The notes: generated by a model from the letters alone, not told the origin. A stretch of 64,000 bases of DNA from a bacterium (GCA_024635485.1 JAGXIV010000036.1:18663-82662), one strand, 5' to 3'; shown: positions 25,095 to 27,606, counted from the stretch's first letter. Numbers and translations: made by a program.

Positions 25095-25122
25095 AAAAAA
25101 TCCTGTACTTCAGGATTTTTTT
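25095..25122 (+). terminator. Terminator hairpin
   Basis: aaaaatcctg-tactt-caggattttt. Confidence 0.7.
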
Positions 25123-25220
25123 AGAATTATTATTTTTCAATGAGCAAGTGTTTTTTTGAGTAATACATTATTGTTGTACCATTTTTTTTGTACAATAAAG
25201 ATATAGTATAATAAAAATAT

Positions 25221-25637
25221 ATGCAATATAAGATTCCCGTACAAATAGAAAACGAAGACCCCATTTTTTTAGGTCTTTCATTGAGGCAACTCACTATACT
25301 TATGATAGGTTTTTGAATAGCTTATCTTATTTTTAATACCTTAACTGAAACTACTGGTCCAGAAATAGCACTCCTTCCAAGTGGTCTAGTAGCTATTATA
25401 ACAACCGCAATTGCGGTGTTTAAATTCAATGAAATGACTTTTATTCCATTTATACTTTCTTTTATTCGATTTAAAATATTTCCGTCCGAACGTAGTTGGC
25501 AAAGTACTATCGATAGTTTCCAACCAATAGATATATGATTTATATCTCACGCGGAAGAAAAAAAGCAACAAAATATAGATATGAATCAAAAAAATGATAC
25601 AATGCAGGAACTTCAAGAAAAATTAAAAAATTTGTAA
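25221..25637 (+). CDS. PrgI-like conjugation/T4SS membrane protein (138 aa)
   Basis: ATG 25221. The N-terminus MQYKIPVQIENEDPIFLGLSLRQLTILMIGF is followed by two TM helices, the layout I associate with the PrgI family. TAA 25635-25637. Confidence 0.5.
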
Positions 25638-25638
25638 T

Positions 25639-26346
25639 ATGGCAGTAAAAACGAAAAAACCTAAAATAGCTGATAGCTCTACTCAACGTCATCTTCCCTT
25701 TTCTCAACTTAGGGAAAATGTCATTTTGATGAAAGATTCTTCCGCTCGAGTTGTCATGAAATGTTCTACTATTAACTTTCTTCTCAAGAGCACAGATGAG
25801 CAAGATTCTATTATTATGAGCTTTCAAAGATTTTTAAATTCTCTCGATTTTCCTGTTCAAATCATGGTTCGATCTACCAAACTTGATATTGATGGATATT
25901 TGGAAAAACTCAAAGAAAAAGCTGTTGCTCAAAAAAATGAACTTCTTCAAAAACAAACCTATGAATATATAGAGTATCTTAAAAAACTTGTAGAAGTGGC
26001 TCAAATAATGAAAAAAGATTTTTATATTGTGATTCCCTATGATCAAGAAGAAGACCGTTCTGTAAAAGATACTGGAATTTTTGGAGTATTCAAAAACTTT
26101 TGGAGGTCTATAAATAATAAAGATGATATAGCAAAGATACGGAGTCAAATTAGAAATTTTGGAACCATGAAAAAATGAATTGCAGGAAGAATAAATACTG
26201 TAAAAACGAGTTTAGAGAGTATAGGAATTCGAGCCACAGAGCTTGATAAATGAGAGCTTGTGAAACTATTGAGTGATTACTATAATCCGAGTCTGTGAAA
26301 TCTTCGGACTATGAAATCTGACCTTTCTGATTATAATCTGATATAA
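25639..26346 (+). CDS. VirB4/TraC N-terminal-domain-like protein without an ATPase domain (235 aa)
   Basis: ATG 25639. The sequence STQRHLPFSQLRENVILMKDSSARVVMKCSTINFLLKSTDEQDSIIMSFQRFLNSLDFPVQIMVRSTKLDIDGYLEKL resembles the N-terminus of Gram-positive and CPR VirB4 proteins. There is no Walker A anywhere. It ends at TAA 26344-26346. Confidence 0.4.
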
Positions 26347-26364
26347 CATACTTAAAACAAATCT

Positions 26365-26709
26365 ATGAAACGAATTATACTCACATTTATGGCTTCTATC
26401 CTAACTATTCAAGCTTCTTTTGCTGCAGATGATAATATCTTATGAATTAGTGACGGAAGACTCAGGAACTGAGATGTTCATCTAGATGATATTCCAGTTG
26501 CAATCAGTTCACTTATAGATTTTTTTATGGGTATTGCAGGTACTATAGCTGTAATTATGATTGTGATTTGAGCCTATAAAATACTCTTTTGATCTATTCA
26601 GCAAGATAAGACAAAATGAAGAGATACTATTATTATGGCACTATGAGGTTTTGCTCTTGCTGCGCTTTCTTGGTTTATAATTAAAATCATACTTTCTAAC
26701 TTTGGATAA
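26365..26709 (+). CDS. Type IV secretion system pilin-like protein (VirB2/TrbC-like, 114 aa)
   Basis: Signal peptide MKRIILTFMASILTIQASFA, then two TM helices: IAGTIAVIMIVI-G-AYKILF and ..IIMAL-G-GFALAALSWFIIKII. TAA 26707-26709. Confidence 0.55.
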
Positions 26710-26710
26710 T

Positions 26711-27181
26711 ATGGCTGAGACACAAAATATTTTATATAGTTGGGAATTTGAAGATACGAAACTAAGAAGTCCAAGCTGGTATATCCTTGCAGTTGCTATA
26801 ATTGTATGACTTGTTATTTGGGGAATAATGACTCGACAATATGGTATGAGTATAGTGATAATGCTCTGAGCATGATTTTTTTATTTTCTAGAAAATAACT
26901 CTGAAGACTTGGTACGAGTTGCTATTACAGAACTTTGAATAGGAGTCCAGGATAATTTTTATGATTATTCGAGAATCTCTTGATACAGTCTCGTATATGA
27001 TGGTGATAAAGCTCTTTTTCTTAGACTTAAACTCAAAAAGAAATGAATTTCATCTGCGAATATTAGAATAGATAATTCTATTGCAGCTGATATTCGGTCT
27101 ATCCTCCCAAATTATATTGAAGAAACAGATAAACTAGAGCTTTCTCTTATAGAAAAAATAAGTCATTACTTAAAGATATAA
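26711..27181 (+). CDS. Hypothetical membrane protein (156 aa)
   Basis: ATG 26711 lies 2 nt after the previous stop. Two TM helices: WYILAVAIIV-G-LVIWGIM and MSIVIML-G-A-G-FFYF. TAA 27179-27181. Confidence 0.45.
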
Positions 27182-27183
27182 TT

Positions 27184-27606
27184 ATGAAAATACTTTTATC
27201 CATACTCCTTAATGCATGTATACTCTATATCATTACATACTTGCTTTGACCAAATTCAGATCAATCAATACAAGCGTGAATTATACTATGATGTAATGAT
27301 TGTGCTTATAATTCAATGGACGCTATAAAAACCTATATCGTATGATGAATTATATTGGGAATCATAAATGCTACAATACGTCCAATTCTCAAGATTCTAT
27401 CACTTCCATTATTCTTTATATTCTTTGGACTTGTCAGTTTTGTTATTAATGGAATGGTACTGTTTATTTTCACATTTATTGTAAATAATCTCTTACTTAT
27501 TGAGGGCGTTGGTTACGAAATAAATGGACTTATAAACTTTGTAATTGCAGTTGCAATTTTTACGGTTTTGAATACTCTCTACTCACTATTATTTTTTAAA
27601 AGGTAG
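27184..27606 (+). CDS. DUF360 / phage-holin-4-type membrane protein (140 aa)
   Basis: ATG 27184 is in frame with track ORF 27355-27606. The sequence IILGIINATIRPILKILSLPLFFIFFGLVSFVINGMVLFI fits the DUF360 pattern. Confidence 0.55.

Follow-up and report, generated by a model that had tools for sequence, protein, structure and literature searches.

The type IV secretion systems (T4SS) most similar to the genes described here are those of the Patescibacteria, which were surveyed in 3,035 genomes by Quiñonero-Coronel et al. (2025, Microb Genom; PMC12102498). In that survey, TrsD was the commonest T4SS component of the group (2,272 copies), the T4CP genes were mostly distant, pilin arrays were common and relaxases were rare. 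Gracilibacteria were the named exception in which TrsD is unlinked to virB4, so that the dispersed arrangement of these two genes is already known for this class; VirB3/PrgI was found near virB4 in only 4.7% of the Gracilibacteria cases, and VirB6 was undetectable in them (PMC12102498). According to Tn-seq work on Ca. Southlakia epibionticum, as it is cited in the same survey, TrsD, PrgI, VirB6 and a pilin array were essential for epibiotic growth; by this cited account, few systems besides the chromosomal T4SS have been shown to be indispensable to epibiotic life in Patescibacteria. Since linkage was measured there only relative to virB4, a PrgI-TrsD pair as a lasting unit was not described, nor was a complementarity of TrsD and VirB4 at residue level.

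Outside the Patescibacteria, a comparable set of genes is carried by the trs/tra operon of the Staphylococcus plasmids pGO1/pSK41 (MPF_FATA, pGO1 subclass). The block of pSK41 consisted of a CagC/VirB2-like gene (TrsB), TrsC, TrsD (227 aa) and TrsE (a 672-aa DUF87 protein), contiguous on a conjugative plasmid which also encodes a relaxase, a T4CP and TrbL/VirB6. In R388, VirB4 (TrwK) is a single chain of 823 aa, and its N-domain is held at the membrane by VirB3 (PDB entry 8RTB; PMC12102498).

The locus studied here lies in a window, i.e. the whole stretch of 64,000 nucleotides that was analysed, from a draft assembly of 1.14 Mb in 39 contigs with 93% completeness. The genetic code of the window was 25 (TGA = Gly), and three closely packed plus-strand ORFs were open only under this code; with translation table 11 the region was fragmented and the middle ORF ended at 179 aa. 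The following features were assigned in the window:

25095..25121, strand unassigned: terminator-like hairpin 3' of msrB, 11-pair stem followed by a T run
25221..25637, plus strand: PrgI/VirB3-like inner-membrane protein, 138 aa, two TM helices, PF12666
25639..26346, plus strand: TrsD-like protein, read as the VirB4 N-terminal domain in the form of a separate polypeptide, 235 aa, without ATPase motifs
26365..26709, plus strand: VirB2-type T4SS pilin, 114 aa, signal peptide and two TM helices, PF18895
26711..27826, plus strand: downstream block of a 2-TM 156-aa protein, a Phage_holin_4_2 protein and secG, assigned by Pfam

The terminator-like hairpin was taken as the upstream boundary of the prgI-trsD-pilin module. 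It was followed by an AT-rich stretch of 100 nt, with a TATAAT at 25207-25212 that is a putative promoter picked by eye only. The intergenic gaps were 1 nt between prgI and trsD and 18 nt between trsD and the pilin gene. The trsD frame was closed by TAA at 26344-26346, and a second in-frame TAA stood nine bases on, at 26353-26355. No VirD4, VirB6 or relaxase gene was found 3' of the locus by Pfam search of the neighbouring ORFs; the genes after the pilin gene encoded, in order, the 2-TM protein, the Phage_holin_4_2 family protein and SecG.

The first gene product scored 47.5 bits with PrgI (PF12666; gathering score 27) over profile positions 1-88 of 91, and two hydrophobic helices forming a two-TM hairpin could be read in its sequence. 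In the profile search of the assembly it was the sole PF12666 copy above the cut-off. VirB3 is the established membrane anchor of VirB4, and the PrgI protein of this locus is predicted to anchor the VirB4 N-domain in the same way. The third gene product scored 43.2 bits with T4SS_pilin (PF18895; gathering score 26.6), and its match to TrbC/VirB2 (PF04956; 20.2 bits, E 7e-4) was under the gathering score of 27.9. Its sequence was read as a signal peptide, MKRIILTFMASILTIQASFA, followed by two TM stretches.

The 235-aa product of the middle gene covered positions 94-238 of 894 in the VirB4 model NF045975 (E 6e-12; 44 bits vs a cut-off of 590) and positions 18-126 of 752 in the CD1110 VirB4 model NF045971 (E 1e-4; 20.6 bits vs a cut-off of 325). 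The cut-offs of these whole-protein models were not reached, and the matches were confined to N-terminal model positions. The protein sequence contained no P-loop (Walker A) motif and was not matched by P-loop_TraG, AAA_10 or DUF87 of Pfam; the Walker A and B motifs and RecA-like domain of the VirB4/TraC/CagE ATPases were absent from it. An AlphaFold2 model, for which 60 diverse homologs were aligned (pLDDT 85, pTM 0.75), was compared with the PDB by Foldseek. The top 14 matches were all R388 TrwK/VirB4 chains (7O41, 7O43, 8RTB, 8RTD) with probability 1.00, E values of 1e-3 to 9e-3 and query-normalised TM-scores of 0.44-0.49. The first match to another protein had a probability of 0.23, leaving TrwK as the only fold match of the predicted model. 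In the PDB, a match was obtained by fold comparison only; neither the protein sequence nor its profile retrieved any entry.

The relation of this protein to the TrsD of pSK41 was remote. By hhalign, the 60-sequence profile aligned with pSK41 TrsD at a probability of 69% (E 4.4e-5), with 180 colinear columns from end to end, and the curated NCBIfam TrsD model NF041427 did not match the protein at E<=1. Because of this remote similarity and the missing NF041427 match, the protein is called TrsD-like, a name that denotes the broad class as used in PMC12102498 and not the staphylococcal subfamily. The Pfam accession PF26593 was precomputed for all of its close homologs. The trsD gene did not lie between a VirB3-like gene and virB4; it was followed by the pilin gene, and virB4 was on another contig. 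Homologs with N-terminal extensions of 100-225 aa were considered as PrgI-TrsD fusions, which was rejected: Pfam PrgI was not detected in them, and the tails were P/Q/A-rich and disordered.

A preliminary description of this DNA had proposed three consecutive, tightly spaced genes for a PrgI-like protein with two TM helices, a protein resembling the VirB4 N-terminus with no Walker A or B and a genuine TAA at its end, and a signal-peptide plus two-TM T4SS pilin, with small membrane proteins and secG in place of VirD4, VirB6 or relaxase genes next to them. These assignments were all upheld by the searches above, and the VirB4 resemblance also by an alignment with a fused VirB4 that is given below. 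The same description had left two explanations, a decayed T4SS or a minimal module in which the VirB4 N-domain works either with no motor or with one encoded elsewhere, and had suggested a search of the genome for a VirB4 C-terminal ATPase ORF. This search returned a single strong VirB4 match, on contig C5, in favour of a motor encoded elsewhere. The features assigned outside the window were:

G000:C5:11079-12947 (L001:1384-3252): VirB4 ATPase, 622 aa, NF045971, Walker A and B
G000:C36 (L025:442-2955), minus strand: T4CP-like ATPase, PF02534
G000:C31:3-2381 (L023), cut by the contig end: T4CP-like ATPase, PF02534
C26:10431-12488: six PF18895 pilin paralogs in tandem
C10:30292-31265: three PF18895 pilin paralogs
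C15:15435-15993: two PF18895 pilin paralogs
C13:26837-26986: PF18895 pilin paralog

Walker A (GSGKS) and Walker B (VIDEAW) were read in the 622-aa protein. It reached 347 bits in NF045971, over the cut-off of 325, but covered only model positions 174-734, and in none of the VirB4 models tested did it match the first ~170-240 positions. Its sequence match in the PDB was 4AG5, a VirB4 C-terminal domain (E 4e-43), and its alignment with pSK41 TrsE ran from the same starting motif (E 1e-31). The neighbours of virB4 on C5 were genes for a SpoIIE/PP2C phosphatase and a membrane protein, and rplK, with no T4SS genes among them.

The two proteins were complementary. On NF045971, the 235-aa protein tiled positions 18-126 and the C5 protein positions 174-734. 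On a fused 831-aa DUF87 VirB4 from a Bacillus mycoides plasmid, the 235-aa protein aligned with residues 26-209 (E 1e-12) and the C5 protein with residues 219-818 (E 3e-71), contiguously and without overlap. Judged by these alignments, TrsD is the counterpart of the N-terminal ~200 residues of VirB4; the remainder, which comprises the latter half of the N-domain and the RecA-like ATPase, is supplied by the C5 protein. Fused and split forms were both found on plasmids. On the B. mycoides plasmid, a pilin gene and a 135-aa PrgI-like gene preceded the fused 831-aa VirB4 gene. On the Geobacillus plasmid pGspE55-1, the order was a PF18895 pilin, PrgI, a 318-aa protein and a 636-aa DUF87 protein, with VirB4 split into adjacent genes; the 318-aa protein matched the 235-aa protein (E 5e-21) and the 636-aa protein matched the C5 protein (E 1e-84). 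From these results, the locus is very probably the membrane-proximal part of a chromosomal Patescibacteria-type (MPF_FATA-derived) T4SS, in which VirB4 is split and its ATPase is encoded on another contig.

Both halves were conserved among relatives. In the same order, TrsD was a single-copy stand-alone ORF of about 226-309 aa (~240) in 40 of 41 genomes; these genomes span three families, and the identity went down to 44% with the same ORF end. The 622-aa VirB4 was likewise single-copy in 40 of the 41 genomes, with 64-96% identity. The two genes were never adjacent in the order: they were 127-165 kb apart on closed genomes, and the closest pair was separated by 12.8 kb. An exhaustive HMMER search of 1.8 billion representatives gave about 2,180 clusters of TrsD homologs, and the best 150 of these were all 86-452 aa long, none of them of VirB4 length. 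Among 151 Patescibacteria genomes, evenly drawn across the phylum, TrsD was present in 143 and VirB4 in 144. Of 136 genomes outside the class of the window, 125 had trsD directly 5' of virB4 and in the same orientation, the two genes being separated by a median of 144 nt. Within the class, none of the five genomes from other orders that held both genes had them adjacent; they were on different contigs in all five. TrsD and VirB4 were also on different contigs in all six sampled genomes of family f14, which belongs to another class (G047, G075, G100, G124, G147 and G169), so the dispersal of trsD and virB4 is not unique to Gracilibacteria.

The prgI gene was directly 5' of trsD in all of the 18 loci of relatives examined, across the three families of the order. 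The pilin gene was 3' of trsD in all loci of family f1 but not in the f2 and f3 loci read in detail (two each), in which unrelated genes followed trsD.

The separation of trsD from virB4 in the order and in the five other genomes of the class, and the retention of TrsD beside PrgI and, in family f1, beside the pilin, would also suit a different explanation, namely that TrsD is an independent accessory protein of VirB4 N-domain ancestry, such as an assembly factor for pilins or PrgI, and that the 622-aa VirB4 is self-sufficient. This is distinctly unlikely in view of the tiling of the fused VirB4 without overlap, the position of trsD directly before virB4 in the great majority (125/136) of the genomes of other classes, and the near-perfect co-occurrence of the two proteins across genomes; moreover, the 622-aa VirB4 has no counterpart to the ~170-240 N-terminal positions of all VirB4 models tested.

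The first explanation of the preliminary description had been a decayed T4SS, of which a shortened virB4 pseudogene would survive beside prgI and the pilin gene, and the absence of ATPase, VirD4, VirB6 and relaxase genes at the locus agrees with it. It is contradicted by conservation: 40 of 41 relatives have a stand-alone frame of ~240 aa that stops at the same point, at identities down to 44%, and the protein was present in 143 of the 151 Patescibacteria sampled. The two in-frame stop codons which close trsD also speak against decay. Two T4CP-like ATPases and no fewer than 10 pilin paralogs have furthermore been retained in the genome, as has an intact VirB4 ATPase that is conserved at 64-96% identity, and the short form of TrsD also occurs in functional conjugative plasmids such as pSK41. 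Decay of the system is therefore highly improbable, and correct annotation keeps the locus from being classed as a pseudogenised T4SS. An assembly error or frameshift that hides a full-length virB4, which the short ORF and the 39-contig draft might suggest, is very unlikely indeed and can practically be dismissed, because the ORF end is conserved in the closed single-contig genomes of relatives (G003, G017, G018 and G028) with the same gene order and ORF length; the locus is also in the middle of a long contig, and on C5 the gene for the ATPase half begins with a start of its own among unrelated neighbours.

The split VirB4 system was accompanied by further components elsewhere in the genome. 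PF18895 matched the genome 16 times, with 10 scores that reached the cut-off, the pilin of the window among them, and these dispersed paralogs fit the variable VirB2 arrays described for Patescibacteria. The T4CP-like proteins of C36 and C31 were paralogs of ~800 aa in which an extended N-terminal region was combined with a P-loop domain resembling that of VirD4/T4CP; their PF02534 scores were 47 and 21 bits, and both were encoded far from all other T4SS genes. These two PF02534 proteins were taken as the VirD4-like coupling proteins of the genome. No relaxase match was found in the 93% complete genome with the two families searched (PF03432 and PF01076), and no VirB6/TrbL match with PF04610 in the same 93%; a homolog of VirB6 or VirB8 was not found in the genome. 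The membrane protein 3' of virB4 on C5 was considered as a hidden VirB6 and rejected: it had no Pfam match, and its position beside virB4 was not conserved across families.

In its components, the present genome matches the chromosomal T4SS of Patescibacteria, with PrgI/VirB3, TrsD, multiple VirB2-like pilins and one VirB4, and it is also alike in that T4CP-like ATPases are encoded far off, a relaxase is missing from the families searched and VirB6 is undetectable; nothing essential differs from the published system (PMC12102498). Compared with pSK41, the architecture of CagC-like protein, TrsC, TrsD and TrsE is the same, whereas the genes here are chromosomal and dispersed, and a relaxase was not found. 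The contact of VirB3 with the VirB4 N-domain in R388 is paralleled here by the pairing of the prgI and trsD genes; in contrast to the single chain of TrwK, the N-terminal subdomain is here a separate gene away from the motor.

By analogy with R388, in which VirB3 wraps the VirB4 N-domain, PrgI would bind TrsD at the membrane. TrsD would then dock the separately made ATPase, so that a complete VirB4 is rebuilt from separate proteins, and we infer that TrsD, VirB4 and PrgI would assemble physically in this way. A hexamer of the ATPase would power the extraction of VirB2-like pilins and their assembly into a surface structure, which might serve the interaction with a host cell. Because no relaxase was found, conjugation is unlikely, and the system probably acts in host interaction, in agreement with the published view.

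A more speculative proposal concerns the Gracilibacteria, in which a conserved PrgI-TrsD membrane platform, with the pilin in family f1, would have separated from the motor in its genetics and perhaps also in its function. TrsD might here be a detachable adaptor that recruits a single, separately regulated VirB4 on demand; we consider this rather unlikely. If it were true, several pilin arrays could perhaps be served by the same motor through the adaptor, and the lineage would be a natural split-protein experiment on the function of the VirB4 N-domain.

To the published picture, the present analysis added the residue-level tiling of a fused VirB4 by TrsD and the short VirB4 without overlap, the persistence of the PrgI-TrsD pair when virB4 moves away, and the position of PF18895 pilins 5' of PrgI in plasmids of Firmicutes. 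These three additions leave the view of the field unchanged.

The origin of the module was considered from plasmid sequences. When plasmids were searched by tblastn for the 235-aa protein, 172 records were returned, mostly from Bacillus, Clostridium and haloarchaea, which is the host range of the MPF_FATA class. A pilin gene was directly 5' of PrgI/TrsC on the plasmids of Geobacillus (L049:5048-5473), B. mycoides (L050:4249-4563) and pSK41 (L061:25115-25432); the pilins of the first two matched PF18895 above the gathering score (30.9 and 36 bits, respectively), and that of pSK41 matched T4SS_CagC (55 bits). VirB2 homologs were reported as absent from MPF_FATA (PMC12102498). Because pilins precede PrgI in these MPF_FATA plasmids of Firmicutes, the order pilin-PrgI-TrsD-VirB4 may be ancestral, rather than co-opted or assembled in Patescibacteria.

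The downstream block is probably not part of the T4SS module, because in two relatives (L035 and L047) the 2-TM, holin and secG genes were ~3.4 kb from the pilin, with other genes between. The 2-TM protein (26711-27181) was tested as a T4SS part and rejected; its matches to DUF5673 and TcpD were weak and below the cut-offs, and it travels with the holin-family gene and secG. The 140-aa Phage_holin_4_2 protein (27184-27606; PF04020, E 4e-15) was found between the 2-TM gene and secG throughout the family. As this position is conserved across the family, the protein probably belongs to the housekeeping membrane proteins and does not derive from a prophage. The ~3.4-kb insert of one relative (G017, L035:6651-9274) encoded a secreted protein of 275 aa and a low-complexity, N/E/K-rich protein of 590 aa; lying next to the pilin, both are candidates for surface or effector proteins specific to the lineage.

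A membrane-anchored SpoIIE/PP2C phosphatase of 402 aa (G000:C5:9753-10961, L001:58-1266; PF07228, E 3e-32) was encoded immediately 5' of virB4. It may regulate the VirB4 motor, or the pairing may be a mere inherited gene order. The pairing of phosphatase and virB4 was found in seven of the eight f1 and f2 loci examined (absent in L057) and in none of the three f3 loci.
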